From a virus (lineage: Duplodnaviria; Caudoviricetes): a stretch of 64,000 bases of DNA. The notes beneath the pieces were generated by a model. That model made no database searches. It saw only the letters and a program-made list of their open reading frames with translations, and was not told the origin of the DNA. The position numbers and the translations under genes were made by a program. Shown piece after piece: positions 2,144 through 57,208 of the stretch; positions within the stretch are counted from its first letter, which is position 1; each line of letters starts with the position of its first letter. The stretch is taken from IMG/VR virus record IMGVR_UViG_3300047169_000010, positions 4,216 through 68,215 of that record; one strand, written 5' to 3'.

Positions 2144-2463
2144 TGAAATTGTCAGATATGAAACCGTGCGCGAGTTGCGGCGGTGCGTTGCCGCCTATAT
2201 GGTACGTTGTTCGTGTGTCGGCAGCCATGCTCAAACAGAGTGCGTTCAACAGCACGATGGGTTTGGTACAACACTTCGGCGGTATGCGGAACCCCGGAGC
2301 GCTGGCCGTTGCCGAAACACTGTCACCAGAGGCTGAGTGTGTTATGATCATGGGCGACGAACAGCCGAGTCTTATGACAGAAATAGCGCTGTGCCAACAG
2401 TGCTACACGATGAAAGAAGTGAATTTGGCGCTGCTGGCAGAGATTCAGGAAAGGAAGTTCTAA
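2143..2463 (+). CDS. Hypothetical protein with CxxC pairs
   Basis: Abuts the primase stop (TAATG); CASC and CQQC motifs. Confidence 0.55.
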   Translation: MKLSDMKPCASCGGALPPIWYVVRVSAAMLKQSAFNSTMGLVQHFGGMRNPGALAVAETLSPEAECVMIMGDEQPSLMTEIALCQQCYTMKEVNLALLAEIQERKF

Positions 2464-2694
2464 ATGCGAAAAGTAAAGTTTGTGAGCGTGGCGTTTGGCG
2501 ACAGATCGATTTATGCCGTTGATGAGTGCGGCAACTTGTGGTCGCTTGACGACAAGATGGAGTGGAATCAGTACGCGCCGCCTATGGTGGAGTCGTCAAT
2601 GCAGCTATGGATGCTGAAGTGGCTGGCGTATGCACTGGTCACAGGTGCAACAGTTTTCTCAGTCTGCCGGTGGGTGCTGCCGTTATGGAAATAG
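2464..2694 (+). CDS. Hypothetical protein with C-terminal hydrophobic segment
   Basis: Tight gene packing; hydrophobic C-terminus. Confidence 0.45.
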   Translation: MRKVKFVSVAFGDRSIYAVDECGNLWSLDDKMEWNQYAPPMVESSMQLWMLKWLAYALVTGATVFSVCRWVLPLWK

Positions 2695-3080
2695 TGTACC
2701 TGAAAGCACAGCAGTTGGAGAACGCTTGCGCAGCCCTGGAAGAGGTGATGAAGGGGCCACGCATGAGCTCTGTCAAAGACCACATGATGTTGATGATAAT
2801 GGCGGTAGCGCCGCACATTCAGTTTGAGTTGCAGGAGTTCAACGCCGACGAAATAAACTGGGCCGCGCAGGGTATTGAAGCCAATCGCAGAGCGCTGAGT
2901 GACTTTGCGCTGCGACTGGTGGCTGTACGGCGTATGCCTGCTGAGCAGCAAGAAGACCCGCGAGTGCCTGTGCTTACCGCCGTGGTCAACGCCATCGGTA
3001 CCGGGGCGTTGGGTGAGCAGGTAAGTCCAGAGGTGATTGCGAGGACGCTGGTGTCGGCGTTGCAGAAAGCGGGGTTATGA
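2685..3080 (+). CDS. Hypothetical protein
   Basis: Start reassigned to ATG 2685 (MEIVYL), overlapping the previous gene end. Confidence 0.5.
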   Translation: MEIVYLKAQQLENACAALEEVMKGPRMSSVKDHMMLMIMAVAPHIQFELQEFNADEINWAAQGIEANRRALSDFALRLVAVRRMPAEQQEDPRVPVLTAVVNAIGTGALGEQVSPEVIARTLVSALQKAGL

Positions 3081-3425
3081 ATGTTCGTTGACCACTACAA
3101 GGTGCTGGGCGTGCCGCCCGGAGCTGACTTCGAAGAAATTCGCAAAGCCTATATAGAGCTGGCCAAGATAAACCACCCAGACATGCTCAGCGGCACAGGC
3201 ATCTTCAGCGATATCACACATAGCTACTGCATTTTGAAAGACTCGGCGCTGCGTAAAATGTACGACGCAGAATGCGCGCTGTTGAAGATGCCTTGCGTAC
3301 CCTGTAAATGGTGCCATGGGCGCGGCGTGGTTGATAGGCAGCGAGGGTTTGGATCTTCTACACGCGGCCCGTGCGCTAAATGCGGTGGTAGCGGGCGCGC
3401 CACGGCCTCGGAGGGCATAAAATGA
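3081..3425 (+). CDS. J-domain (DnaJ-like) co-chaperone with partial zinc finger
   Basis: DHYKVLGV...EEIRKAY..LAKINHPD J-domain with HPD motif; two CxxCxGxG motifs. Confidence 0.88.
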   Translation: MFVDHYKVLGVPPGADFEEIRKAYIELAKINHPDMLSGTGIFSDITHSYCILKDSALRKMYDAECALLKMPCVPCKWCHGRGVVDRQRGFGSSTRGPCAKCGGSGRATASEGIK

Positions 3426-3967
3426 GTAGTCTTCTAAGCTACAATCAACTGATGAACTTGCTGCGCGACGGTGTGATTGAGAACAGCGACCCGAGCCATG
3501 TGAATGGGGCCAGTGTTGACGTAACGCTGGGGCGTGAGTTGATGATTGAGCAGAATTTCACGGGCATATCGGTCAGCTTGCGTGACAGACATCCACTGCC
3601 TGCGTTCAAATATACGATGGATGACGAAACAGGTTACAGACTCATGCCCGGAGAGTTCGTGTTGGCGCATACGCAACAAGCGTTCAATCTACCGTTGAGT
3701 CTAACGGCGCAGTTTCACTTGAAGTCGTCGGCGGGGCGCGTCGGCTTGCAACACGCACTCAGCGGCTGGTGTGATCCCGGTTGGAATAAGAGTGTGCTGA
3801 CGCTTGAGCTGACCAACAGCACACGATATACGCCAATCATCATCCGTCCCGGCGACCGAATCGGTCAAATGACGTTCATACGAATTCCAGCAATACCGGC
3901 AGAGAACGGATACGGACGGCGTGGGCGCTACAACGGTGACAGTTCAGTTTCTGGCTGTAAGCCGTAG
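3422..3967 (+). CDS. dcd: dCTP deaminase
   Basis: NGASVDVTLG, LKSSAGRVG, DPGW, LTLEL and PGDRIGQM motifs. Confidence 0.9.
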   Translation: MSSLLSYNQLMNLLRDGVIENSDPSHVNGASVDVTLGRELMIEQNFTGISVSLRDRHPLPAFKYTMDDETGYRLMPGEFVLAHTQQAFNLPLSLTAQFHLKSSAGRVGLQHALSGWCDPGWNKSVLTLELTNSTRYTPIIIRPGDRIGQMTFIRIPAIPAENGYGRRGRYNGDSSVSGCKP

Positions 3968-6979: not shown

Positions 6980-7429
6980 ATCCAAACATTTCTTCCGTAC
7001 AAAGATTTCGAGCGCTCGATGTCCGTATTAGACGATAAACGACTTGGCAAGCAACGCGTTGAAGCTGCGCAGATTTTGCGCATTCTGACGGGCCAGCGCT
7101 TGTTCGTTACGCAGCCCACCGGTCAAGCGTCAAACGCTTGGCAGAATCACCCTGCTGTGCTGATGTGGCGCGGCCACGACCATTGGTTGCGCGCCTATAT
7201 CGCCGCCAGTATCAGAGAGTGGCGAGCGCGTGGCTTCAACAACACGATACTGACGCCAGAGTTTTGCCTGTCCGCGCAAGCTCCACCGGCATGGTTGGGG
7301 CTGCGACGATTCCATGTCAGTCATCAAGCCAATTTGGTGCGGAAGCTGCCCGCTGTGTACGGCAAGCTGTGGCCGACCGTTGACCCCACGCTGCCGTACT
7401 GGTGGCCGAGCAAGGAGGTTCCACGATGA
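6980..7429 (+). CDS. Pyrimidine-dimer DNA glycosylase/T4 endonuclease V-like protein (MSMEG_6728-type), probable ATC start
   Basis: IQTFLPYKDF..S..LDDKRLGKQRVEA...HPAVLMWRG...SHQANLVRK. The family N-terminus (MQTFLP) lies upstream of the tracked ATG. Confidence 0.8.
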   Translation: MQTFLPYKDFERSMSVLDDKRLGKQRVEAAQILRILTGQRLFVTQPTGQASNAWQNHPAVLMWRGHDHWLRAYIAASIREWRARGFNNTILTPEFCLSAQAPPAWLGLRRFHVSHQANLVRKLPAVYGKLWPTVDPTLPYWWPSKEVPR

Positions 7430-8075: not shown

Positions 8076-9158
8076 ATGTTCAGCATAAGTGATGGCAGCG
8101 TATACGGCCCACAGATACGCCAGTTCTTCCAAACGCAGTTCCCAACCAACACCGCCAAGACGGACGGTGACGTACTCGAGCTGCTGACGGCGGCGATAGT
8201 CGCCACAGGTAAGGTGCGGCTCGGGGCCAAGCCCAGCATTGAGACTCTGTACCTGATAAGGAAGTACGTGACCGGGCAGATATTCTTGCAGAAGCCCATA
8301 AACTTCCTAATGCCGTGGGGCAGCGAAAAGCCGGGGCATTTGCAGACAGTTGACATTGCCGAGGTAGCGGCCATGAAGACGCTGAGCTGCTTACAACAGC
8401 GTGTGCAACATGTGTACGCGCCTGGAATTCACATCCGCGTTCGTGTGGAGGATGCGACTGCACCCAATCTGTTCCCAGACAATCGTGAGCAGGCGCGCAT
8501 GGACGCCAAGGTGTACACCACAAGTCTTGAACGACTTGTGTGGGTGCTAGGTGTGCGTGACTACGTAGAGCTGGTGCCGGAATCGCATATGATAACGGAA
8601 GAAAAGTTTGAGCGCGCATTTGCACCCAATTACGACGCAATGCTTGCGTTTCTTTCAGATACAGAAGGTATGCCGGAGGAGCTATATGCCGCGACCACGG
8701 CGCATTGGCATCTGCGCGACCTAGGCTGGATGGGTATTGTGCCGCTTGCCCAACGCGAACACTACCGCGCCACCTACAGGCGTCTGTACGGTCTTAGCGA
8801 CCAAGCCGCTACCGCCATGCTGGCGCGCTACCTCGCACAGTCGCTTACACGCAAACACTTGCGGATGCTGGGTAACTTAGACTGGGCGGATTATCTAGGA
8901 CTCAGCTTCGTTGGACCGATACCAGGAGACCCAACCGGCATCGCCAGCAAGCGGCTCTACTATCGCACACTGCCAGAGAACGTGAGCAGTATGCACCTAG
9001 CGCCGTGGAGGGCCAAGGGCTACCTAGCCGTCGGTGAAGACGGACTTCGCCCACGCTTGGCAAGCTGGCAGGAGCATCGGCAGTACACACGCAATACAGT
9101 GACGCTGACAGCCGGTGACGTAAGCGTGGACGTACAATCTGATTACGAGGTGATGTGA
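8076..9158 (+). CDS. Divergent Dit1/PvcA/IsnA (isonitrile synthase)-like protein
   Basis: PINFLMPWGSEKP...VDIAEVAAMKTL..LQQRVQHVYAPGIHIRVRVED parallels the PI.F.LPAFP.KS...PD.AE..AL..L.....VYAPGA.I.I.SDG pattern. Start reassigned to ATG 8076 behind GAGGGG. Confidence 0.6.
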   Translation: MFSISDGSVYGPQIRQFFQTQFPTNTAKTDGDVLELLTAAIVATGKVRLGAKPSIETLYLIRKYVTGQIFLQKPINFLMPWGSEKPGHLQTVDIAEVAAMKTLSCLQQRVQHVYAPGIHIRVRVEDATAPNLFPDNREQARMDAKVYTTSLERLVWVLGVRDYVELVPESHMITEEKFERAFAPNYDAMLAFLSDTEGMPEELYAATTAHWHLRDLGWMGIVPLAQREHYRATYRRLYGLSDQAATAMLARYLAQSLTRKHLRMLGNLDWADYLGLSFVGPIPGDPTGIASKRLYYRTLPENVSSMHLAPWRAKGYLAVGEDGLRPRLASWQEHRQYTRNTVTLTAGDVSVDVQSDYEVM

Positions 9159-9523
9159 TGAAAGAATTCATAACACTGTTCAAGAAGTCTACCAATGCTG
9201 GCAGGGTGATGACGGAACGGAAGTATCTTGGCGTTCCAGTGGCCGGATTCTATCGCGGCGTGTACATACTGCTGGACGTCACCGATACCGAAGTAGAGAT
9301 AGTTCTGGTGTGGACGCCAAAACTCAAACGGGGTGACGGCAAGGCGCGGCGTGCGCTTACATTTTTGTCCAGCGTCAGCGCTGCGTGCCGAATTCCTCTG
9401 TGTGTGATTCCACATACGTATGACAACGACGGGATGCCGCTGGATGCCTTGGCGCGCTGGTTCTTTCGCCAAGGCGTTCGTGTGATCGGCGGAGTACCGA
9501 GGTATTTGAAGGAGGCTGCCTGA
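9155..9523 (+). CDS. Putative GNAT-fold acetyltransferase
   Basis: IVLVWTPKLKRGDGKARRAL resembles GNAT motif A; LARWFFRQG resembles motif B. Overlaps the upstream gene (ATGA). Confidence 0.5.
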   Translation: MMKEFITLFKKSTNAGRVMTERKYLGVPVAGFYRGVYILLDVTDTEVEIVLVWTPKLKRGDGKARRALTFLSSVSAACRIPLCVIPHTYDNDGMPLDALARWFFRQGVRVIGGVPRYLKEAA

Positions 9524-9747
9524 TGGTGATAATGGGTAAATACAAGCTGGGTGCCGTTACCGTTAGCGGTAGAAAGTACAATCGTCTGTATGCACGCGAA
9601 AATTGCGTGGCACTGGCCTTTGTGGCACCCAGTAGGACGCTTGAGTACACGTTAGTGACAAGCCTTGAGGAGCTGAGCACACAGTACGGCTTGAAGACAG
9701 CCGTGCTGGTGCGAACGGCGCTACTCAAAGCTGGATGGCAGGTTTAG
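9523..9747 (+). CDS. Hypothetical protein
   Basis: Translationally coupled (TGATG). Confidence 0.45.
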   Translation: MVIMGKYKLGAVTVSGRKYNRLYARENCVALAFVAPSRTLEYTLVTSLEELSTQYGLKTAVLVRTALLKAGWQV

Positions 9748-9762
9748 AAGGCGAGGAATTAC

Positions 9763-10266
9763 ATGGCTGTAAAGAAGAATGTGTTGAAGTTCAACCGATG
9801 TGAGGAAATCACCAATGGTGGCGGTAAGTTCTACCGCTGCACGGGCAAGGCTGGGCACCTGCGCGGACACAAATTCGGCGTTCACCCGCTGCGCGGGCAG
9901 CAGCCGCTTGAAGTTGTGAAGAAGTTCATGCCGGTGAAGGTTGCGAAGAAAGAGAAGTCTGTCCTCGCTAAGAACACCGCGGAAACGTTCTTGAAGGCGC
10001 TGACCGAGTACTATGCCAACGACCGCCTAGCTCCGGGACTGGTGTTGGCGTGGCTGCCCGACAAGAATGTATGGTACGGCAGTGTATGTCGTTACGAACA
10101 CGGCACAAAGACTATTGTGACGCGTATTGAGCGAACCGATTCGCTTGCCAACGTGTTGAAGAACTTGGTGGGCGCGTGGCGCAAATCCATCGCCAGACCA
10201 GACAAATCCAATCTTCGATACATTCTTACACACGAGGACACGCAAGACTTTAGCGTGGAGTTTTGA
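9763..10266 (+). CDS. Hypothetical protein
   Basis: GAGGA RBS; 167 aa. Confidence 0.55.
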   Translation: MAVKKNVLKFNRCEEITNGGGKFYRCTGKAGHLRGHKFGVHPLRGQQPLEVVKKFMPVKVAKKEKSVLAKNTAETFLKALTEYYANDRLAPGLVLAWLPDKNVWYGSVCRYEHGTKTIVTRIERTDSLANVLKNLVGAWRKSIARPDKSNLRYILTHEDTQDFSVEF

Positions 10267-19087: not shown

Positions 19088-19834
19088 ATGTCAAAGAAGC
19101 GAGGGAACCACCCACCACCAGAACCTGAACCAGCGCCACTAAGTCTGCTTGAAACGCTCCTGCTACAGGACGTTCCACGCGATTTTTTGCTGGCAAGCGG
19201 ACAGCACCGTGAAGACGGTGTGTTGGCACAGCTTTCTAGATATGAGCTTCAAGAGCTGGTTCCGCGCACCGCGCAATTGGATGTACCCATGCCCAAAGAG
19301 AACATTCTTAGCTTGGCACGGTGGGTTGTAGAACGAGCTTTGCTGGTGAAACACGGTGTTACAGACGAGAAGTTGGCGGAATACGATGAGAAGGCTGCCA
19401 GATGGACAGCCTTCACCTACACAAACCACGCGGCGCGCGTCGCCGCTCAAACCAAAGAAAAAGCTCAAAGGAGAGCGAATACAGTGGCAGACGAACAGGT
19501 AGCGGCAGTGAAGACGGCAGCAAAGAAAGTTGCGAAGAAGGTTGCAGAGAAGAAGGCGGCGAAGGTCGCAACGAAGAAGGCAGAGAAGGAAGCTGGCCCG
19601 TCCGTGTACGAGACCATGGTGGTCGCAACCAAGAAGGAAGTCCGCGAAGGCAGCTTCTTCGATCAGGTGGTGAAGTTCGCGCAGAACCCGATCAAGTTGG
19701 AGACGCTGATCCAGAAGCTGGTGAAGGAAGTCGGCCCGTCGCTGCGCAGCAGCAAGGACCCCGAGCATGTGGTGCGCACCCGCACACGGGATGCGTTCAG
19801 CCGGTTGGGCTTCTTGAAGGTTGCCAAGGGGTAA
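19088..19834 (+). CDS. Lys/Ala-rich putative DNA-binding protein; paralog of the 58090 gene
   Basis: AKKVAKKVAEKKAAK linker; the C-terminal ~70 aa align with the C-terminus of 58090-58566. Confidence 0.7.
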   Translation: MSKKRGNHPPPEPEPAPLSLLETLLLQDVPRDFLLASGQHREDGVLAQLSRYELQELVPRTAQLDVPMPKENILSLARWVVERALLVKHGVTDEKLAEYDEKAARWTAFTYTNHAARVAAQTKEKAQRRANTVADEQVAAVKTAAKKVAKKVAEKKAAKVATKKAEKEAGPSVYETMVVATKKEVREGSFFDQVVKFAQNPIKLETLIQKLVKEVGPSLRSSKDPEHVVRTRTRDAFSRLGFLKVAKG

Positions 19835-20097
19835 CGTTCTGGCTGTCGTGTATAATCTAGCCAGCCCAGTATGGGCTGGCTAGGACTTTCTGTAAGGAGG
19901 TTCACCGTGACGGCATACATGCGCATCAAGATGCTGCTGGAAAGCGAAGGATGGAAGCGCGGAACGTGGGGCAGCGGTGTCGTGCAGTTCACAAAAGGAA
20001 AGCGATACATAAACATCCAAGGCGCTGGCTATTGGCGTCTCTACAAAGGTGGTAGCCACATCAACGGAAAAGGAATTGACACACTGAGGGCGGCGTT

Positions 20098-20910
20098 ATG
20101 ATGGAAATCTACATACCAACACGAATGGCGATGGCCCGGTTCCATACCGCGCCGTTGCTCAAGGCGGCGGGCGTAAAGTTCACACTGGTGGTTGACAATG
20201 AGGAACAACGGGCGGCGGCGCATAAGCTGGGCTACAAGCGAACAATGCTCACGCCCAACGTGGCCGACCTAGCGGCTAAGCGTACGGCCATCAACCAGCA
20301 GCACGGCAAAGGCTTCTACATCTCCATGGATGACAACATCCAGGAATTTCAGGCCGTCATGCCGAAGTACATGAAACAGAAAGACCTTGACACCGGCAAC
20401 ACGGCGTTCGCTTGGCGCAAGGTGTTCAATCAACGGATTGCGCCCGCGGACATGGTGGACGCGCTGGGCGATCTGTCTGAAATGTGCGTCCACCATGGCA
20501 CTGTATACGGCGGCGTGGCTACGATGGAAAACCCTTTCTTTCGCGGCGGTGAGCGCTACGCTTATCGCCGGTTTGTGAAGGGGAAGATATTCGTCATGGA
20601 GGCCGACCCGCAACTTGAATTCAAGTACAGTATGGTCGAAGACTCCTACATGACGGCGCAAGTGCTGGCCATGTACGGCAGCGTGGTCGTGGACAAGCGA
20701 CTGTTTTACCGGGCGCGCTGGTACGAGCCCGGAGGCCATGGAACGCGAGAGCAGCGCGAGGCAAACGGTTTGATGGATCACCTGCGCAGTATCTGCGCTG
20801 AGTATCCAGGCTTGGTTGGCGTGGGCAAGGGCGGCAACACGGCCTTGCGCGTGCTGCGAACGAGTGAGAACGGAATCAATAAGTGGCGAGAGGAGAACGG
20901 GTATCTATGA
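20098..20910 (+). CDS. TAGT/GREB1-like glycosyltransferase 1
   Basis: IYIPTR N-terminus, AKR..I, SMDDN (DxD-like), VEDSYMT.Q.L..YG, PGGHG, EYPGLV. Confidence 0.75.
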   Translation: MMEIYIPTRMAMARFHTAPLLKAAGVKFTLVVDNEEQRAAAHKLGYKRTMLTPNVADLAAKRTAINQQHGKGFYISMDDNIQEFQAVMPKYMKQKDLDTGNTAFAWRKVFNQRIAPADMVDALGDLSEMCVHHGTVYGGVATMENPFFRGGERYAYRRFVKGKIFVMEADPQLEFKYSMVEDSYMTAQVLAMYGSVVVDKRLFYRARWYEPGGHGTREQREANGLMDHLRSICAEYPGLVGVGKGGNTALRVLRTSENGINKWREENGYL

Positions 20911-21761
20911 AAGACAATCGGTTGGTGATTTATCACGGCAATTGCATGGACGGCTTCACGGCGGCGTGGGCTGTATGGCTAAAGCACCCGGACGCTGAGT
21001 TCGTAGCGGGTGTGTACGGCGAACCGCCGCCGGACTGCACGGGGCGCGACGTGATTCTGGTTGACTTCAGCTACAAGCGACCGGTGATGGAGCAGATCAT
21101 TGCCGTGGCTAAGTCGGTGTTGGTGCTTGACCATCACAAGACTGCACAAGCAGACCTTGCCGGGCTGGACACAGTTTTTGAATTGCACGATAAAGTGAAT
21201 GTGATCTTCGACATGGACAAGTCCGGCGCGCGACTGGCGTGGGAGCACTTCCATCCATTTATGGGTTTGCCGTTGTTCGTGCAGATGGTGGAGGATCGTG
21301 ACCTCTGGAAGTTCTCACTTCCTGATTGCCGCGCACTTAGCGCTTACTTCTTCAGCTTTGAGTATGACTTCATGACGTGGAACGGGTTTCTCAACGATAT
21401 GGAAGCCGTTGCGACGCGTACGCGATGCATCGCAGCCGGCGAAGCCATTGAGCGCAAACATCACAAGGACGTCGCCGAGTTAGTGACTAAGACACGGCAC
21501 GTACGATACTTCGTGCATGGTGCGCTGGGTCCGATTCCGTGTGCGAACCTGCCTTACACCTTAGCCAGTGACGCTGCCAACCTGATGGCTGAGGATGCAC
21601 CGTTCGCCGCCACTTACTACATGGATGCGCGCGGCGATTACGTATTCAGTCTGCGCAGCCGCGAAGACGGTGCGGACGTCAGCGCTGTCGCAGCAAAGTA
21701 CGGCGGTGGCGGTCATGCGCACGCTGCCGGGTTCCGCATCAAAAGTCTGGAGGAGCTGTGA
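20907..21761 (+). CDS. DHH/DHHA1 phosphoesterase
   Basis: YHGNCMDG, VDFS, LDHH, DRDLW, GGGGHAHAAGF. Confidence 0.9.
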   Translation: MKDNRLVIYHGNCMDGFTAAWAVWLKHPDAEFVAGVYGEPPPDCTGRDVILVDFSYKRPVMEQIIAVAKSVLVLDHHKTAQADLAGLDTVFELHDKVNVIFDMDKSGARLAWEHFHPFMGLPLFVQMVEDRDLWKFSLPDCRALSAYFFSFEYDFMTWNGFLNDMEAVATRTRCIAAGEAIERKHHKDVAELVTKTRHVRYFVHGALGPIPCANLPYTLASDAANLMAEDAPFAATYYMDARGDYVFSLRSREDGADVSAVAAKYGGGGHAHAAGFRIKSLEEL

Positions 21762-22525
21762 AAATTTACATCCCAACCTTGGCGCGTACAGACAATCAGA
21801 TTACACTGCACAACCTTCCTAATTTAGTTTTGGAGGATGTGGTGCTGGTGGTCGACAAGAAAGATCGTATACCGTTTGGCGGTGCGTCTACTATACTGAC
21901 TTGCCCTGCACACGGAATCGGCAAGGTGCGCCAGTGGATCATTGACAATCACGATGTGAAGAAGTACGGTAGGTCATTGCTGATGTTGGACGACGACCTG
22001 TCATTCGCCGTGCGGCGCAAGGATGATCCCACCAAGTTTCTACCTTCTACAGCTGCTGACGTTATAGCGATGTTGAACGAAACAGCTGATATGGCGCAAG
22101 AGTACGCGCATGGTGGAATTCTTAGTCGCGAAGGAGGAAATCGTGTTCTTAGCAACTACAAAGAAAATAGCAGAAATCTGCGCGCGCTATTTTACGATGT
22201 GACCATAATGCGAAAACTTGACATTCGCTTCGATAGAATTCCCGTCATGGAAGATTTCGATGTCGCGCTTCAGTTACTGCGTGCTGGATACCAGAGTATA
22301 ACCGTGGCCCGGTATGTGCAGGATCAGATTCGCAGCAACGCACCGGGCGGCTGTAGCACCTACCGCACCCGCGAAGTGCAGCGGAAGGGCGCGCTGGGTT
22401 TGCAGAAGTTGCATCCGCAGTTTGTGAAGACCGTTGAGAAGACCACCAAAACCGCCTGGAACGGCGAAACCCGCACCGACGTCATGGTGCAATGGAAGAA
22501 GGCATATGAGTCAAGCCAACGATAA
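21758..22525 (+). CDS. TAGT/GREB1-like glycosyltransferase 2
   Basis: KIYIPT.AR, RQWI, MLDDD, MEDFDVALQLLRAGY, SNAPGGCSTYRT, HPQFVK. Confidence 0.85.
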   Translation: MKIYIPTLARTDNQITLHNLPNLVLEDVVLVVDKKDRIPFGGASTILTCPAHGIGKVRQWIIDNHDVKKYGRSLLMLDDDLSFAVRRKDDPTKFLPSTAADVIAMLNETADMAQEYAHGGILSREGGNRVLSNYKENSRNLRALFYDVTIMRKLDIRFDRIPVMEDFDVALQLLRAGYQSITVARYVQDQIRSNAPGGCSTYRTREVQRKGALGLQKLHPQFVKTVEKTTKTAWNGETRTDVMVQWKKAYESSQR

Positions 22526-22647
22526 GAAAGTGACTTTGAAGCAGGTTGAGAAAGCGATTGAGAAACACATGTATTCTTGCTGTACGTACGCCAGTCAAGC
22601 GGAGTTGCTCAGGGACAGAGTTCTTAGCGATCTTAGGCGGGTGAAAG

Positions 22648-23625
22648 ATGAATAAGCCTTACATCCAAGAACCGCCGTTTTCTGTTCAGGTTGAGCTTGT
22701 TCAGGGCTGCAACCTGATGTGTGGATTCTGTGGTATCAACGGAATTCGTGAGAAAGCTGGCAACTACGACTTCGCCAACATTGAAACAATCCACGCCACA
22801 GCGTCGCAGATGGCCGAGGCTGGCTGGACGAGCATGATCATCTTAGCCATGCACGGCGAGCCGAGTTTGCACCCACGACTTGCTGACTGCATTGCCACGC
22901 TGCGCAGATACCTACCTAAGAACGATATTACACTTGTCAGTAACGGCAGTGGATTCAATCGTCCTGGAAAGCAGAAGCAACTGGTTCAGGACGTGTTTGA
23001 TGCTGGTCTCACCAAGCTAGCCCTTGACGACTACGAGCACAGCGGCTACATTCCAAAGTTGCTGACGGCTCTGGGAGACGACGTACCGTTCAAGGTGCTG
23101 CACTACCCGGCCGACGGGTTGGACACCAGCCCGTGGCGGCGCTGGCCTGCTAAAAAGCAGGCGATTGTGGTGCTGGCGGACTTGCAGAAAAACGCGGCCA
23201 ACCATGTAGGCTTGGCGCAGCTCAGCAACCACTGTGGGGCCGCTGGGCCGCTTACTGAAAAACTTGCTGGGCAAAGGTGCGCCAAAGTTTTTCGGGAGTT
23301 TAGCGTGCGCTGGGACGGCGGCGTGGCGTGCTGTTGTCAAGACTGGAGAGGCACCGTAAAGGTAGGTAACGTCAACGACACGTCAATCGACAGACTGTGG
23401 AACAATAGCGTTATGCAGGCACTCCGGCGCAAACTGTACCACGGCGAAAGAGATTTCGGTGCTTGTCTAGGCTGTGACTATCGTAGTACACGCGTCGGGC
23501 TGCTACCCGATAAGATGGGTAAGGACAGTCTGCCGCGTGCCGATAAGAAGGACATGACTGTGTTGGCTGCGGCAAGCGCCGGTGATTCTTTGACGCAGAT
23601 TGTATTGCGTCCGTGGGAGAAGTGA
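22648..23625 (+). CDS. Radical SAM enzyme with SPASM/Twitch domain
   Basis: CNLMCGFC (CxxxCxxC), HGEP, and C-terminal C...WDG...CCCQDW...GNV...LWN...C..C. Confidence 0.9.
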   Translation: MNKPYIQEPPFSVQVELVQGCNLMCGFCGINGIREKAGNYDFANIETIHATASQMAEAGWTSMIILAMHGEPSLHPRLADCIATLRRYLPKNDITLVSNGSGFNRPGKQKQLVQDVFDAGLTKLALDDYEHSGYIPKLLTALGDDVPFKVLHYPADGLDTSPWRRWPAKKQAIVVLADLQKNAANHVGLAQLSNHCGAAGPLTEKLAGQRCAKVFREFSVRWDGGVACCCQDWRGTVKVGNVNDTSIDRLWNNSVMQALRRKLYHGERDFGACLGCDYRSTRVGLLPDKMGKDSLPRADKKDMTVLAAASAGDSLTQIVLRPWEK

Positions 23626-23626
23626 A

Positions 23627-24034
23627 ATGTTTCTTTCTGACGAAGCAGTGCAACGCTTCATGGCAAAGATAAAGTACGATGGTGACTGTTGGATATGGCA
23701 GGGTGCTACCAACGGTCCCGGTAACTATGGACACATGGGTGTTCCTGGTCGTAAGACTATGACAACTCACCGTGTGTCTTATCTACACTTTATCGGGCCA
23801 ATACCAGACGGTCTGGATGTTCTTCATAGTTGCGACAGAACACTTTGCGTAAACCCAGACCATCTATTTACAGGTACAGATGAGGACAATAAGAAAGATA
23901 TGGAACGCAAAGGTCGTCAGCGAGATCTGACCAAGCGAACGGCGACTGGACAATTTGCGGCTTACTTGAAACCTCTTCCTATCGTTGACGATAGGAATGA
24001 CAACCCGGATTATGCAGCATGGAAGGACATCTAG
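23627..24034 (+). CDS. HNH (His-Cys box/HNH_3-type) endonuclease
   Basis: CWIWQG...YG...HRVSY..FIGPIP.GL.VLHSCD..LCVNPDHL..GT..DN..DM..KGR. Confidence 0.88.
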   Translation: MFLSDEAVQRFMAKIKYDGDCWIWQGATNGPGNYGHMGVPGRKTMTTHRVSYLHFIGPIPDGLDVLHSCDRTLCVNPDHLFTGTDEDNKKDMERKGRQRDLTKRTATGQFAAYLKPLPIVDDRNDNPDYAAWKDI

Positions 24035-24035
24035 T

Positions 24036-24575
24036 ATGGCGCGAGCAACGCTAAAGAAAAAGAGTAAAGCAGGCAAGGAGTATGCTTGTGATAGATGCAC
24101 CAACAAGATTGTTGCGGGCGAACAGTATTACATGTGGAGCTTCCGCTATGGCGGCACACACTTCCAGCACGCCAGCCACGGTATGCCCAAGTTCAGCCAA
24201 CTGACGCAAAGCAAAATGAGTGGCGCGTACAGAGCCATCGAAGACTGTGAAGCTACACTCCAAAGCTGCGGCAGCGCCAGTGAAGTCGCGGATGCACTTG
24301 GCGCGTGCATTGAAGAGATCGGCAACGTTCGTGACGAGTATCAGGAAGCTATTGACGCCATGGTTTCGCCCGATGGCGTGGTTGGTCAGAATTGTCAAGA
24401 GGCGATTGACAACCTGGAATCGTTCATCAGTGAGTTGGAAGAGGCACAGCAAGAAGCTGAGAATGCTGAAGAACCTGACGATGATGACGACCAAGATGCA
24501 AAGGCTGCACTTGAAACAGCGCTTGCAGACTGCATCAGCAAGGCAGAAGAAGCACTGGGCAGCGCCAGTTTCTAA
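24036..24575 (+). CDS. Hypothetical protein (basic CxxC N-terminus, acidic helical C-terminus)
   Basis: ATG 24036 directly follows the HNH stop. Confidence 0.55.
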   Translation: MARATLKKKSKAGKEYACDRCTNKIVAGEQYYMWSFRYGGTHFQHASHGMPKFSQLTQSKMSGAYRAIEDCEATLQSCGSASEVADALGACIEEIGNVRDEYQEAIDAMVSPDGVVGQNCQEAIDNLESFISELEEAQQEAENAEEPDDDDDQDAKAALETALADCISKAEEALGSASF

Positions 24576-24595
24576 GAACTGAAAGCGAGGGAAGT

Positions 24596-25453
24596 ATGAA
24601 AAGACTTGAAGATTTGTTCGCCTTTATGAAGGAACGGTATTCTATCACACAGAAGAAGAATGCCGGTGAACCGAAGCCGTGGACATCAGACGAAGTTCTG
24701 CAAAAATATCGCTTTTGCAATATCAATCGCGAAGACGATACGGTCACACGGTGGATCGCCAAGAACTGGCGCAAGCCCAACGCCGCAGACCCACACCTAT
24801 GGTTCGCAATGGTGGTGGCTCGGTTTATCAACTGGCCAGATACTTTGGCGGAGATTGAATATCCGCACATAGACGTGTTTGAGAAGTGGGTACAGCTCAG
24901 GTTCGCGAAGTCTGTGCAGTACAGAGAAGTAAATGGGTTGAAGGTGTACGGCGGCGCGTACACCATCAGCACCAACGGGCGCGCCATGGTGAAGTGGAAA
25001 TACCTTGTTGAACATGTGTTCAAACCGCTGTGGGAAGCGCATGAAGAAATTGAATCCGTGCTGGCGACGCCACGATTGCATCTTGCGGCTCTACACGAAG
25101 AACTGTGTAGATTCCAAGGGTTGGGCAGTTTCATGTCTGCACAAGTTATCGCTGATCTGAAATACGTACAGCTGAAGAAAGCGCCCGACTGGTGGACGTT
25201 CGCGGCCAGCGGCCCTGGAAGTAGACGTGGGCTGAATATAGTATTCGGCGCAGACATGAACCGTAGCTGGCGTCCCGGCGAATGGGATGAAAACTTCATG
25301 GAACTGTATGGAAGAGTGGCGCTGATGTGGGCGTCAGAGGGATTTCCGCGCATTCATGCACAAGACGTTCAGAACAGTTTGTGCGAGTTTTCGAAGTACT
25401 ACAAGGTGCTGACGGGCGCGGGTAGACCACGACAATTGTACACAGGAGTATGA
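24596..25453 (+). CDS. 5-hmdU DNA kinase helical-domain family protein (aGPT-Pplase1-like)
   Basis: F..ER..I...K..G.P.PWT.D.VLQKYRFCNI.REDD.VT.WI signature; GPGSRRGL; VQNSLCEFSKY. No Walker A motif is visible. Confidence 0.85.
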   Translation: MKRLEDLFAFMKERYSITQKKNAGEPKPWTSDEVLQKYRFCNINREDDTVTRWIAKNWRKPNAADPHLWFAMVVARFINWPDTLAEIEYPHIDVFEKWVQLRFAKSVQYREVNGLKVYGGAYTISTNGRAMVKWKYLVEHVFKPLWEAHEEIESVLATPRLHLAALHEELCRFQGLGSFMSAQVIADLKYVQLKKAPDWWTFAASGPGSRRGLNIVFGADMNRSWRPGEWDENFMELYGRVALMWASEGFPRIHAQDVQNSLCEFSKYYKVLTGAGRPRQLYTGV

Positions 25454-25528
25454 TAATGCAATTCATACTGGTAGAAGAATCGTTAGTGCTAGAACCGTGC
25501 CGCACACCATGATCAAGGAGTCCTAAGA

Positions 25529-25744
25529 ATGTACGTCCTCAACAAGAAGAAAGACAAACTGTACGCCGTGAACTATGACACTAAGGCCGTCGTAGAATTG
25601 GGAATCATATTGAGACTTGAGCGCACCGCCATGGGTGTTATGACCACCGGCGGTCGCAAGGTTGACCACAGAATTGTGAGCGTATATCTCACCAATCGCA
25701 CACGACTAAGAATACCAATCGCTTTGTTCTACGAGGAGGAGTAA
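25529..25744 (+). CDS. Hypothetical protein
   Basis: AAGGAG RBS; abuts the next gene. Confidence 0.45.
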   Translation: MYVLNKKKDKLYAVNYDTKAVVELGIILRLERTAMGVMTTGGRKVDHRIVSVYLTNRTRLRIPIALFYEEE

Positions 25745-26766
25745 TGCACGTAATCACAGCAGTTGACGTAAATGACGCATTGGCACAGGGACTTGAATAT
25801 ATTTTCACGTACGGCAAAGAAGAACCCAGCCGCAACGGGCCGGTGCTGGTAGCACCCACGCCGGTGACCACCAAGTATCTGTACCCGCACCGACGCGTGC
25901 TATTCAGCCCCACGCGAGATGCTAACCCGGTATTTCATTGTCTAGAGGCGCTCTGGATGCTCGCAGGCCACAACGACATCGCGTTCCCCAAGAAGTTCAA
26001 CAGCAAGTTCGGCGCTTACAGTGACGACGGCGTAACCCAACGTGGCGCGTACGGCTACAGGTGGCGGCAGTGGTTCGGGTATGATCAACTCAAGGTTATC
26101 ATCGACGAGTTGAAGACCAACTCTGCCAGTCGTCGGTGTGTGCTTGCCATGTGGGATGGAGGACAGCTGTCGTACTGGGATAACGACACAACTCGTGGCG
26201 AACCACATCCGGGAGACCTTCTTGCCACGACAGTTGACAAACCATGCAATACTCACATCTACTTCCGCGTTCGCGACGGTGTGCTTGATATGACAGTGTG
26301 CTGCCGTAGCAACGACATTCTGTGGGGTGCGTACGGGGCCAACGCCGTCCACATGAGCTTCCTGTTGGAGTACATGGCCACCGCCATCGGTGTCAGTATG
26401 GGTGTGTATTATCAGGTCAGCAACAACTACCACCTCTACACTGATGTCCTGGGTCGTGAGAAGGGAGAACAGATTATAGAGGAATGCCACGGGGCGCTGT
26501 TAGTCGTTGAGAATGTGCCGCTTGTGGCAAACCCAGAAACCTTTGACAAAGAACTTCAGCGGTTCATGCAAAACCCCGGCGCGGCGTTTGACTATGAAAA
26601 TGAGTTCCTGGGCCGCGTTGGTATGCCGATGTATCTTGCGTGGGAAGCCAAGTCGACGTCTATCACGGATGCGCTAGCGCACGCAGCTTACATCACTGAC
26701 ACAGCTTGGAGATTAGCATGTACCGAATGGTTAGAAAGACTTGAGGTAAGACGAAGTGGAAGATAG
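25744..26766 (+). CDS. Thymidylate synthase-fold dUMP hydroxymethylase (5-hmdU synthase)
   Basis: SRNGPV, DANPVFH.LEALWMLAG, GAYGYRW, SRR, KPCN (catalytic Cys), RSND and WGAYGAN. Asn at the specificity position indicates dUMP rather than dCMP. Confidence 0.85.
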   Translation: MHVITAVDVNDALAQGLEYIFTYGKEEPSRNGPVLVAPTPVTTKYLYPHRRVLFSPTRDANPVFHCLEALWMLAGHNDIAFPKKFNSKFGAYSDDGVTQRGAYGYRWRQWFGYDQLKVIIDELKTNSASRRCVLAMWDGGQLSYWDNDTTRGEPHPGDLLATTVDKPCNTHIYFRVRDGVLDMTVCCRSNDILWGAYGANAVHMSFLLEYMATAIGVSMGVYYQVSNNYHLYTDVLGREKGEQIIEECHGALLVVENVPLVANPETFDKELQRFMQNPGAAFDYENEFLGRVGMPMYLAWEAKSTSITDALAHAAYITDTAWRLACTEWLERLEVRRSGR

Positions 26767-27322
26767 AACCGTTCTAAAGAAGAAGCTGCAATTCATGCTT
26801 GAGGGCAGCGCGGTACAGCGCTTCCACACACGAGCACCGCTGCGACCCAATACCGTGGGGCACCATAGCAACGGCGTTGCTCTAATCTGCTACATGATCT
26901 GGTGGGGTGACAACGCCTGTCTACCACGCCCACATCTGATACTGGCAGCTTGTACGCACGATCTTGCTGAGCAAGTAACTAGTGACGTTAGCGCGCCCGC
27001 CAAGCGACTGCTCGACATTCGCGATATTCTACACCTTTTAGAGAACGAAAAGTTGGCTGACCATGGCATGGACTTCGATCGCTATCTAACAGAGGAAGAG
27101 CTGGCGGCGTTGCGTATGGCCGACCTGTTTGACGCCATGCTGCTGTGCTGCCAGGAAGTTGCGGCGGGTAACAAGATGATGATACTGCCGTATAGACGGA
27201 TGCGTGAATGGGTGCGAGAAGTCTACACTACGCTCACACCGACCATGGCTGAACTCTTTATGGCCATACAAGAAATCATGCAGGAATACAGGGAGGAACC
27301 GACTTATGACTGTTTCAGCTAA
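26756..27322 (+). CDS. HD-domain 5'-deoxynucleotidase/dNTPase (YfbR-like)
   Basis: VQRFH...TVGHHS...THDLAE...D...P.K...MAD..D. Confidence 0.8.
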   Translation: MEDRTVLKKKLQFMLEGSAVQRFHTRAPLRPNTVGHHSNGVALICYMIWWGDNACLPRPHLILAACTHDLAEQVTSDVSAPAKRLLDIRDILHLLENEKLADHGMDFDRYLTEEELAALRMADLFDAMLLCCQEVAAGNKMMILPYRRMREWVREVYTTLTPTMAELFMAIQEIMQEYREEPTYDCFS

Positions 27323-27920
27323 CCCCAATGACCGACAAGTGGGCGGCACCCACTACCAAGACCAAGCAGGTACATGCCCCCACTGTGGCGGTACCATCCA
27401 ACACTGGGACTTGTTCGGCCGCATGAACTATCTGGTGGGCTACGCAGTGCGCTACATCATGCGATTCAAGAATGGCGAGGAAGATCTGGACAAGGCCATT
27501 CACACTATTGAGAAGATGAAGTCTGTGTTCTATCCAAAATCCAAAGATAAGTGCGGCGGCGATGGGCCGTATGCACCGCTACTCACGGCGCTACCCTACC
27601 CCCTACCCGGCGCTCTAGAAGAAGCCGAGAAGTGGGCGCATCAACACGCAGAAGACACCATGCGTACTGAGTGGGCTAACACGCGACCTCCATTGTCTGA
27701 ACAGGAAGCTGCTGACGAAGTGCGTGCCCGCGCCACGGCGTACGCTAACGCCAAACCAGATGCTGACGTGCCACGAGGTTACATACTTGAGGAAGTCAGT
27801 TCGCCTCCGGGCTGTTGGCATTGGCGTAAGGTTGGCGGTACGTGGGGGGTTACATATGAAAGTCGTGCGTCGGCGCTGCGAGCACTGCTAGAACACAGAC
27901 TTGTTTTCAACACTAAGTAG
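27306..27920 (+). CDS. DUF3310-domain protein (related to T7 gp1.7-type nucleotide kinases)
   Basis: ANPNDRQVGGTHY...IQHWD...GYAVRYIMR.KNG.EDLDKA.H. Confidence 0.75.
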   Translation: MTVSANPNDRQVGGTHYQDQAGTCPHCGGTIQHWDLFGRMNYLVGYAVRYIMRFKNGEEDLDKAIHTIEKMKSVFYPKSKDKCGGDGPYAPLLTALPYPLPGALEEAEKWAHQHAEDTMRTEWANTRPPLSEQEAADEVRARATAYANAKPDADVPRGYILEEVSSPPGCWHWRKVGGTWGVTYESRASALRALLEHRLVFNTK

Positions 27921-56575: not shown

Positions 56576-56684
<109 letters not shown>

Positions 56685-56694
56685 AGGTTTTGTA

Positions 56695-57208
56695 CATGGC
56701 GGTGATAAGTGCCGGGTATTCTGTTGCTAGGAACCCGGCGAACCCCGACCGCTGTTAGGCGGCCAACGGAAGAGCAGAACGCTCGGGCCGGGTAAAGGCA
56801 AGAACGTTGCTACGCTTCGTACTGTCACTTTGGGTGGCAGTTGTTTGTCAGGCTCTCGTTACGGTGAGCACCCAGTTCCGGCACGGTCCATGAATTGTTG
56901 AACACCCCGTCGAAGCCGTGACACGCCCACAAAGAAATACACTGTTCTTACTAACCGCTATCTACTGACGTAGACCGCGTGCGCGGTGCGCAGTGTACTT
57001 CTTGGTGGACGTGGCGGGAGTCGAACCCGCGTCCGCGACGTCCTCCAATTCACTTCATACTGTGCGTACTGCATGGGTGGCCCGCTTTGGGTTCTGTGTC
57101 CTGCGGGAGTCCCACTCGCGCAGTTGACAGAATCCCGGCGCTGCCACCCAACTTACGGGGCGACTAACGGCTTCGCCTCCACCACCCGGCGTACATAGCA
57201 CCGGGGCT
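56695..57208 (-). ncRNA. ssrA: Circularly permuted (two-piece) tmRNA gene
   Basis: The acceptor piece ends GCGGGTTCGACTCCCGC-CACGTCC-ACCA at 57003. After a 74-nt intervening segment, the coding piece starts GGGCGTG-TCACGGCTTCGACGGGG at 56928. The acceptor stem has G3-U70; helix 2 is CAATTCA/TGAATTG; the tag ORF ends LAA-stop. Outer ends are approximate. Confidence 0.9.
56755..56838 (-). other. tmRNA tag reading frame ATQSDSTKRSNVLAFTRPERSALPLAA*
   Basis: Resume codon GCC after ACAACT; 27 codons, then TAA. Confidence 0.85.

Follow-up and report, generated by a model that had tools for sequence, protein, structure and literature searches.

A widespread viral gene cassette predicted to glycosylate 5-hydroxymethyl-deoxyuridine in DNA without a DNA kinase

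The six phage groups with published thymidine hypermodification enzymology (M6/YuA, PaMx11, ViI, PhiW-14, SP10 and SH-Ab 15599) all phosphorylate 5-hydroxymethyl-deoxyuridine (5-hmdU) (PMC5889632; PMC8989533; PMC11472151; PMC13458397). We analysed a 64,000-nucleotide stretch of tailed-phage DNA (the window; bases 4216-68215 of the 68,215-base linear IMG/VR record IMGVR_UViG_3300047169_000010) in which an operon at positions 20098-27920 encodes a thymidylate-synthase homolog together with two glycosyltransferases, a radical S-adenosylmethionine (SAM) enzyme and the protein HMUDK_hel, and asked which base such an operon would make. An earlier note on this DNA had proposed a pathway based on 5-hmdU that uses the glycosyltransferases and the radical SAM enzyme and dispenses with both the 5-hmdU DNA kinase and the amino acid:DNA transferase (ADDT). 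Family searches with Pfam and PHROG placed all the genes that it had named on the + strand (Table 1), the match to DUF3310 being weak, and the proposed pathway was supported by a conserved gene linkage in dozens of viral contigs and by the absence of the kinase and ADDT. The operon is a member of a widespread, uncharacterised and kinase-independent variant of 5-hmdU hypermodification. We think it probable that one or two sugars are added to 5-hmdU in DNA and that oxidative tailoring follows. The analysis establishes the gene identities, the active-site signatures, the linkage and the lack of both enzymes, and points to hmdU with one or two sugars, oxidatively tailored, as the most likely product.

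Absence of the kinase and ADDT, and linkage of the remaining genes

Searches of all 68,215 bases of the record with profiles for the 5-hmdU DNA kinase (PF18748) and ADDT (PF18724) returned nothing at E<=10, and neither family was detected in five syntenic relatives, four of which are 95-100% complete and one of which has terminal repeats. The positive controls, M6 and SP10, were detected at 1e-19 to 2e-48, with the M6 ADDT control at 2e-48. The absence of both enzymes that the earlier note had read from the window was therefore seen in the entire record and in its relatives, and no kinase/transferase pair was found elsewhere in the record. The complete genomes of two cultured phages, PhiJL001 and LuckyBarnes, which carry HMUDK_hel, a TAGT-type glycosyltransferase (TAGT) and the synthase homolog and have no radical SAM gene, also contained neither PF18748 nor PF18724. 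In a third cultured phage, the Ralstonia jumbo phage phiRSL1 (NC_010811.2, ~164-171 kb), HMUDK_hel adjoins a thymidylate-synthase gene, and TAGT matches occur at two places in the record, the best of them ~5 kb from HMUDK_hel.

A canonical kinase and ADDT might still lie in an unsequenced part of the genome, in which case the operon would add sugars on top of the amino-acid route; the record is linear, has no terminal repeats, and is 71% complete as estimated by CheckV. We give this explanation almost no weight, because neither family occurs in the four 95-100% complete relatives or within 10 kb in the 80 related loci described below, the record already holds the packaging, head, tail, replication and modification modules, and known hypermodification genes cluster tightly by the hydroxymethylase (PMC5889632).

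The operon would have in common with the six groups named above a 5-hmdU precursor made through a synthase homolog, and this homolog has the same active-site motifs. It also shares with the M6-type systems a syntenic block of HMUDK_hel, synthase homolog, HD-domain and DUF3310 genes beside a family-A polymerase. The gene order in M6 is ADDT, pyridoxal phosphate (PLP) enzyme, radical SAM, kinase, HMUDK_hel, Nmad5, synthase homolog, HD, DUF3310 and polymerase. The window lacks the kinase, ADDT, the PLP enzyme and Nmad5, and the difference is concentrated upstream of HMUDK_hel, where M6 has the genes for ADDT, the PLP enzyme, the radical SAM enzyme and the kinase, whereas the window has those for TAGT-a, a DHH protein, TAGT-b, a Twitch-type radical SAM enzyme, an HNH endonuclease and a protein without family assignment. 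The radical SAM isomerase of M6, gp53, is unrelated to the window enzyme (0/80 loci by tblastn).

A large protein collection contains 98 relatives of the radical SAM protein; the radical SAM proteins P0003 and P0006 are 72-79% identical to the window protein and are encoded on 68-70 kb contigs. Searching for related loci with the single protein sequence returned nothing, whereas a scan with an alignment of its relatives identified 192 IMG/VR stretches encoding a relative, 80 of which were kept and underlie all counts out of 80 given here. No more than 10 kb from the radical SAM gene, tblastn located the synthase homolog in 73-74 of these loci, HMUDK_hel in 68 and a TAGT in 57, and any recognisable glycosyltransferase was present in 65. 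Of the 80, 68 have both the synthase homolog and HMUDK_hel in addition to the radical SAM gene, and 60 of these 68 encode a recognisable glycosyltransferase. The kinase, ADDT, PLP enzyme, radical SAM enzyme and Nmad5 of the M6 type were each found in none of the 80. Typically HMUDK_hel comes first, in some loci followed by a zinc ribbon, and then come the TAGT, radical SAM and synthase-homolog genes; in the window the four core genes, with TAGT-b as the TAGT, are adjacent and on one strand (21758-26766, +). The cassette is found on at least two unrelated phage backbones, which include AEP-primase/UvrD types and the SNF2/PD-(D/E)XK type of the window. Dozens of viral contigs carry this combination of genes, so that their linkage is not due to chance, and the enzyme set is not unique to this phage but a widespread cassette.

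It is conceivable that the transferases and the radical SAM enzyme have targets other than DNA (the host envelope, virion proteins or some small molecule, for example) and merely adjoin the nucleotide genes, since GT-A, GT-B and Twitch radical SAM enzymes are chemically versatile. We regard this as very unlikely, because the linkage to a dUMP hydroxymethylase and to the glycosylase-fold HMUDK_hel is kept across unrelated backbones, and TAGT and AGT-like enzymes are known transferases of hydroxymethylpyrimidines in DNA (PMC13390438, PMC8256090).

The precursor, the sugars and the radical SAM step

Alignment of the window synthase homolog to ThyA (HMMER) revealed the catalytic Cys168, an Asp at the Leu143 position, a retained equivalent of Asp169 (in the sequence RSND) and an Asn at the Asn177 position. 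An Asp at the Leu143 position is typical of hydroxymethylases that admit water, retention of Asp169 rules out the 5-hydroxy-dCMP synthase type, and Asn at the Asn177 position denotes uracil rather than cytosine as the substrate (PMC13326640). We extended the comparison to 70 sequences, comprising 65 homologs from cassette loci, the window protein, and the homologs of M6, LuckyBarnes, PhiJL001 and MW202897. None of the sequences departs from the catalytic Cys or from R-S-N-D with its Asp169 equivalent (70/70), Asp was present at the Leu143 position in 68 of the 70, and Asn occupied the Asn177 position in the window protein and in all eight sequences read from the alignment. The motifs of M6 gp58, from a phage known to build on 5-hmdU, are identical to those of the window protein. 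In agreement with the dUMP-type assignment made earlier, the window protein is predicted from these residues to be a dUMP hydroxymethylase. Identities as a dCMP hydroxymethylase or a 5-hydroxy-dCMP synthase were considered and rejected on the Asn at the Asn177 position and the retained Asp169 equivalent.

The synthase homolog of LuckyBarnes, gp41 (locus L004, positions 8436-9989), is a protein of 517 residues with an unexplained C-terminal extension of ~270 residues, and also has Asn at the Asn177 position. The genome announcement of this phage calls gp41 a dCMP hydroxymethylase and merely guesses at DNA modification; the Asn would argue for dUMP, not dCMP, as its substrate.

The dCTP deaminase encoded in the window is a likely supplier of dU nucleotides to the hydroxymethylase. 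Family signatures suggest that the synthase homolog would then convert dUMP to 5-hydroxymethyl-dUMP and that the HD nucleotidase would remove canonical dT and dU nucleotides, and the phage family-A polymerase would incorporate 5-hmdU, most likely in place of thymine.

TAGT-b is a candidate 5-hmdU DNA glycosyltransferase. The Pfam gathering cut-off for PF20691 is 27.5 bits; TAGT-b reaches 65.3, whereas TAGT-a, at 19.5, falls short of it. All members of the TAGT-b family have the DDD motif. BLASTP detects no similarity between the two proteins beyond an N-terminal MxIYIPT; hhalign of the TAGT-a family against the TAGT-b family gave a probability of 98.7% (E 4e-16) over 221 columns, in which the DxD, ED and GG motifs line up. 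A 275-residue open reading frame (ORF) of locus L086 did not match the TAGT-a family. TAGT-a was found in just 8 of the 80 loci, compared with 57 for TAGT, and is an accessory member of the cassette and a candidate second-sugar transferase. TAGT-b would transfer a sugar from a host nucleoside diphosphate (NDP)-sugar to the hydroxyl of 5-hmdU in DNA, parallel to the formation of glucosyl-hydroxymethylcytosine (glucosyl-hmC) in T-even phages and of base J, and TAGT-a may add a second sugar.

Loci without a TAGT usually carry, beside the radical SAM gene, a GT-B-like gene for a protein of 340 residues (locus L147, positions 8967-9995, and 18 other loci). A protein atlas groups this protein with GT-B enzymes that include the T4 DNA alpha-glucosyltransferase (score 0.98, TM 0.83), and its family (c15) had no match among PDB sequences. 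Another neighbour that replaces TAGT (locus L103, positions 8173-9300) matches Glycos_transf_1, and one relative that is 100% complete has no PF20691 match. Two unrelated transferase folds occupy the same slot, and this replacement of one fold by another argues that sugar transfer is a conserved step.

The predicted pathway resembles that of the T-even phages in that a synthase homolog would make the hydroxymethylpyrimidine mononucleotide, glycosylation would be post-replicative, and a second sugar may be added by a TAGT, as the second glucosyltransferase of the T6 type is (PMC13390438). The T6 enzyme belongs to phrog_842, a family that TAGT-a and TAGT-b also match. The window differs from the T-even phages in its base, which would be uracil (Asn instead of Asp at the ThyA Asn177 position), in the addition of the radical SAM enzyme and HMUDK_hel, and in its siphovirus-like backbone. 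Phage systems of the TET/5mYOX type (PMC8256090; bioRxiv 10.1101/2023.12.21.572611) likewise use TAGT-type and GT-B transferases on a C5-hydroxymethyl pyrimidine in DNA, but there the hydroxymethyl group is introduced by a dioxygenase, whereas in the window it would come from a synthase homolog acting before replication. The passages searched contain no mention of HMUDK_hel and Twitch radical SAM partners; the preprint reports metagenomic DNA-type transferases near thymidylate-synthase homologs (bioRxiv 10.1101/2023.12.21.572611).

The predicted first product, a hexosyl-5-hmU in DNA, is the same kind of base as base J, which differs in that its hmU is made by JBP dioxygenases acting on DNA, in eukaryotes, and in that neither a second sugar nor a radical SAM step is involved. 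JGT was reportedly assigned to the TAGT family by Iyer et al. in 2013. Sugars on a thymine derivative are also found in the oligosaccharide-hypermodified thymidines of the phages SP-15, YerA41 and Carin-5 (PMC12686479), but these rely on a phosphate-bearing dihydroxypentyl linker and their genomes have blocks of nucleotide-sugar genes, and the window has nothing of the kind.

We examined the radical SAM enzyme through its family alignment and a structure model. The invariant Cys residues are C21, C25 and C28 (CX3CX2C) together with C211, C229, C230, C273 and C276; as only five of them are C-terminal, a single auxiliary cluster is expected and not the two of a full SPASM domain. The NCBIfam twitch model matched residues 211-280 at 7e-9, all NCBIfam matches of this protein lying far below their cut-offs. 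The best Foldseek match of the model (predicted local distance difference test score, pLDDT, 89.6) was BtrN (4m7t; E 1.4e-14, template-modelling (TM) score 0.80 by target), followed by the Twitch dehydrogenase SpeY (8.6e-7) and then by sactisynthases and anSME. BtrN turns a cyclitol alcohol into a ketone and contains a single Cys4 auxiliary cluster (PMC10337720). Alignment and model together place the window protein among Twitch-type enzymes with one auxiliary cluster, and BtrN is its nearest solved fold. The best structural matches, BtrN and SpeY (4m7t, 7wzx), share with it the CX3CX2C motif and a domain for one Cys4 auxiliary cluster, but the window enzyme is 15-17% identical to them and ~80 residues longer, and its substrate would be linked to DNA or to a nucleotide instead of being a free aminocyclitol. 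It is a candidate alcohol dehydrogenase, and the simplest expectation is that it would oxidise a hydroxyl by two electrons, the target being either the DNA-linked sugar or the hydroxymethyl group.

The second of these targets leads to a different reading, in which 5-hmdU in DNA is itself the substrate of the radical SAM enzyme and HMUDK_hel, beside or instead of glycosylation, for example to give 5-formyl-dU (as anSME does with the CH2OH of serine) or to remove the hydroxyl, so that the DNA would contain mixed bases. The radical SAM, HMUDK_hel and synthase genes are indeed the most conserved trio of the cassette (68-74 of the 80 loci, against 57 for TAGT), a 100% complete relative does without a PF20691 match, and BtrN and anSME, both of which oxidise alcohols to carbonyls, are among the fold matches. 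However, most of the loci that lack a TAGT have a GT-B transferase beside the radical SAM gene. Moreover, HMUDK_hel is independent of the radical SAM enzyme, because PhiJL001 and LuckyBarnes keep HMUDK_hel and TAGT without it. Such direct action on 5-hmdU is on balance unlikely.

The earlier note had also counted a DHH phosphoesterase among the enzymes of the set. Its gene sits between those of TAGT-a and TAGT-b, with ATGA and GTGA overlaps at the junctions that were read directly; the DHHA1 domain scores 27.1 bits against a cut-off of 25.9 and the DHH domain 18.2, below its cut-off of 28.1, and the LDHH and GGGGH motifs are intact. None of the 80 cassette loci contains the gene, and in L085 and L088, which are the closest in synteny, it is missing between TAGT-a and TAGT-b, while the 80 nearest relatives of the protein in IMG/VR (44-53% identity) have no cassette gene within 8 kb. 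Relatives in cultured phages occur in Vibrio H20-like, Caulobacter CbK-like and other phages. This distribution speaks against its membership of the set and identifies DHH as a lineage-specific passenger in the operon, not a part of the core cassette. It would be co-translated with the transferases in this lineage only, and its activity is probably that of a general phage phosphoesterase for nucleotides or oligonucleotides and not a required step; a role such as removal of NDP is possible, though unsupported.

HMUDK_hel and the nature of the final base

The role of HMUDK_hel is the main mechanistic question of the operon, and it raises the question of whether the clade-1 aGPT-Pplase is itself an enzyme (M6 gp55 type); the literature searches turned up no function assigned to M6 gp55. 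The PF18723 match of the window protein spans profile positions 4-275 of 281, and the protein is 38% identical to M6 gp55. An alignment of 35 sequences contains 17 invariant residues, including the pair Cys263-Glu264, and the invariants are common to M6 gp55, PhiJL001 gp19 and SP10 gp186C. The structure model (pLDDT 94.4) belongs to the helix-hairpin-helix glycosylase superfamily, and its three tied top matches in VIA (Z 9.7-9.8) were Mag1, DUF2419 and the structure of the PaMx11 ADDT, gp46 (8z2m; Z 9.7 over 226 residues). Foldseek returned weak matches to helix-hairpin-helix glycosylases only, and no match to PDB sequences was found even at E 10. The model argues that HMUDK_hel is a paralog of ADDT with a helix-hairpin-helix glycosylase fold. 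In a profile-guided alignment, its invariant Cys falls in the same column as a Cys of M6 gp51 that is, with a nearby Glu, essential for ADDT (PMC8989533); hhalign of the HEL family against M6 gp51 covered 17 columns and was not significant. Residue 259, four positions before the invariant Cys, is Gln in the window and LuckyBarnes proteins and Glu in those of M6, SP10 and PhiJL001 and in the M6 ADDT.

SP10 gp186 (locus L165, positions 1999-3912), from which the Pfam name derives, is a fusion of a kinase (residues 35-193) and HMUDK_hel (313-598). The 144-kb genome of SP10 has no PF18724 match at E<=1, though SP10 makes glutamyl-thymine. The HEL-type domain of gp186 may thus be the glutamate:DNA transferase of SP10, and HMUDK_hel may be an enzyme rather than a passive kinase domain. 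The earlier statement that the window has no amino-acid transferase holds insofar as PF18724 has no match, but must be qualified at the level of fold, where HMUDK_hel resembles ADDT and carries the invariant Cys. Since HMUDK_hel appears to be paralogous to ADDT, with this Cys at the position of the essential one, a transferase-like catalytic step is possible; the protein would flip out the base and, with its conserved Cys-Glu pair, act on the same 5-substituted uracil.

Glycosylation could, on this basis, be an activation that takes the place of the kinase. The Cys of HMUDK_hel would attack C6 and expel the O-linked group, leaving an exocyclic methylene to which a nucleophile or hydride is transferred, much as ADDT works with 5-phosphomethyl-dU; the base that results would then be something other than a glycoside. 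More generally, the Cys would activate C6 of a 5-hmdU that had been glycosylated, or oxidised by the radical SAM enzyme, and the protein would exchange or reduce the substituent at C7, which would constitute a second, phosphate-independent route and leave a new non-glycoside or rearranged thymine derivative in the virion. The invariance and alignment of the Cys, the match to PaMx11 gp46, and the example of SP10, whose kinase-fused HMUDK_hel suggests that HEL-type domains may be active transferases, are all consistent with such chemistry. In addition, M6, ViI, SP10 and PhiW-14 have an activity, not yet assigned to an enzyme, that makes thymine from residual 5-hmdU within the DNA polymer (PMC8989533), a conversion that the same HMUDK_hel could perform. 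Both forms of the proposal are nevertheless distinctly unlikely. A sugar is a much poorer leaving group than phosphate, and the two stacked transferases of the window, LuckyBarnes and T6 better fit a sugar that is retained. M6 gp55 is dispensable for the reaction in vitro (PMC8989533), the window protein has the Gln in place of Glu before its Cys, and the hhalign comparison with M6 gp51 lacks significance.

We therefore retain glycosylated and oxidatively tailored hmdU as the product, and note the points that weigh against it. Full-text literature searches found no chemical characterisation of a cluster that combines a hydroxymethylase, HMUDK_hel, a glycosyltransferase and a Twitch radical SAM enzyme, and no chemical datum for any carrier. 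About 7 of the 80 loci have the radical SAM gene without any cassette partner, and further genes may lie beyond the 71%-complete record. The assignment of a hydroxymethylpyrimidine in DNA as the putative TAGT acceptor derives solely from linkage to the hydroxymethylase and HMUDK_hel, and the substrate of the radical SAM enzyme could be an NDP-sugar or a nucleotide instead of DNA. Finally, a plain glycosylation scheme assigns no step to HMUDK_hel, whose Cys at the position of the essential Cys of ADDT hints at chemistry beyond sugar transfer.

Neighbouring genes and significance

Features of the operon and its surroundings are collected in Table 1. Three genes of the operon had gone unmentioned in the earlier note, namely those for the HNH endonuclease, the 179-residue acidic protein and a 71-residue ORF. 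The 179-residue protein had no relative among 160 fetched IMG/VR loci and appears to be lineage-specific. The HNH endonuclease is a mobile insert; it lies between the radical SAM gene and HMUDK_hel, an HNH gene also flanks the radical SAM gene in loci L112-L115 and L129, and the cassette appears to be a frequent HNH landing site. The assignment of the last gene to DUF3310 is weak: the direct Pfam match (E 0.21) is far below the cut-off, and support comes from homology to PhiJL001 gp26, which itself passes the Pfam DUF3310 cut-off and whose BLASTP alignment to the window protein spans the GG(T/S)HY motif. A match of this protein to phrog_236, annotated as a nucleotide kinase, was rejected because only the DUF3310-like part of the profile is covered. 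A 196-residue ORF at the position of M6 gp54 was similarly rejected as a kinase, having no Walker A motif and no family.

Table 1. Features of the operon and of its surroundings in the window
Feature	Positions	Strand	Evidence or remarks
TAGT-a, divergent TAGT-like GT-A glycosyltransferase	20098..20910	+	phrog_842 2e-11; PF20691 below cut-off
DHH/DHHA1 phosphoesterase	20907..21761	+	phrog_4771 8e-96
TAGT-b, core glycosyltransferase (candidate)	21758..22525	+	PF20691 9e-18; phrog_842 4e-50
Twitch-type radical SAM enzyme, BtrN-like (from model)	22648..23625	+	PF04055 and PF13186 (Pfam C-terminal label SPASM)
HNH homing endonuclease	23600..24034	+	PF13392 9e-10; phrog_1872 1e-31; start codon uncertain
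179-residue protein, acidic C-terminus	24036..24575	+	no significant family match
HMUDK_hel (clade-1 aGPT-Pplase)	24596..25453	+	PF18723 5e-43
71-residue ORF	25529..25744	+	no PHROG/Pfam family
Thymidylate-synthase homolog, predicted dUMP hydroxymethylase	25744..26766	+	phrog_5131 4e-102
HD-domain YfbR-like deoxynucleotidase	26756..27322	+	PF12917 1e-9; syntenic with M6 gp59
DUF3310-like protein	27306..27920	+	BLASTP to PhiJL001 gp26 1e-9; phrog_5839 3e-9; syntenic with M6 gp61 and PhiJL001 gp26
Terminator-like hairpin, 13-bp stem	19856..19884	+	immediately upstream of the operon; consensus scan only
248-residue protein	19088..19834		no PHROG/Pfam family
dCTP deaminase	3422..3967	+	PF22769 DCD E 2e-28
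DnaJ-domain protein	3081..3425	+	within the replication block
T4 endonuclease V-like pyrimidine-dimer glycosylase	7019..7429	+	within the replication block
Permuted tmRNA, possibly false	56664..57095	-	ARAGORN
Replication/nucleotide block		+	DUF3854/DUF5906 primase-helicase, DnaJ-domain protein, dCTP deaminase, ligase, T4 endoV-like glycosylase, family-A polymerase, PD-(D/E)XK nuclease, SNF2 helicase
Structural block		-	large terminase, portal, tape measure, tail proteins

As both a replication/nucleotide block and a structural block are present, the window contains all the main modules of a tailed phage. A megablast search of the region against phages gave no match. Within the replication block, the DnaJ-domain protein has a zinc-finger remnant, and a pyrimidine-dimer glycosylase resembling T4 endonuclease V is also encoded; the ARAGORN call of a permuted tmRNA, with a 27-residue tag, is possibly false. 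A protein of 248 residues encoded upstream of the operon has a Lys/Ala-rich middle stretch resembling histone H1, and homologs with 56% identity lie directly upstream of the cassette in loci L087 and L088. The hairpin between this gene and TAGT-a may mark a boundary of the transcription unit.

By combining a DNA glycosyltransferase with a BtrN-like radical SAM enzyme and having no kinase, the cassette probably yields a DNA base that has not been described before, which may be an oxidised glycosyl-hmU. PhiJL001 and LuckyBarnes, as cultured phages with a cassette that lacks the radical SAM gene, make part of the question directly testable, and phiRSL1 is another possible test organism. Bases of this kind shape the resistance of phages to restriction, CRISPR and type IV nucleases, and such modification systems supply enzymes for the labelling and sequencing of 5hmU.

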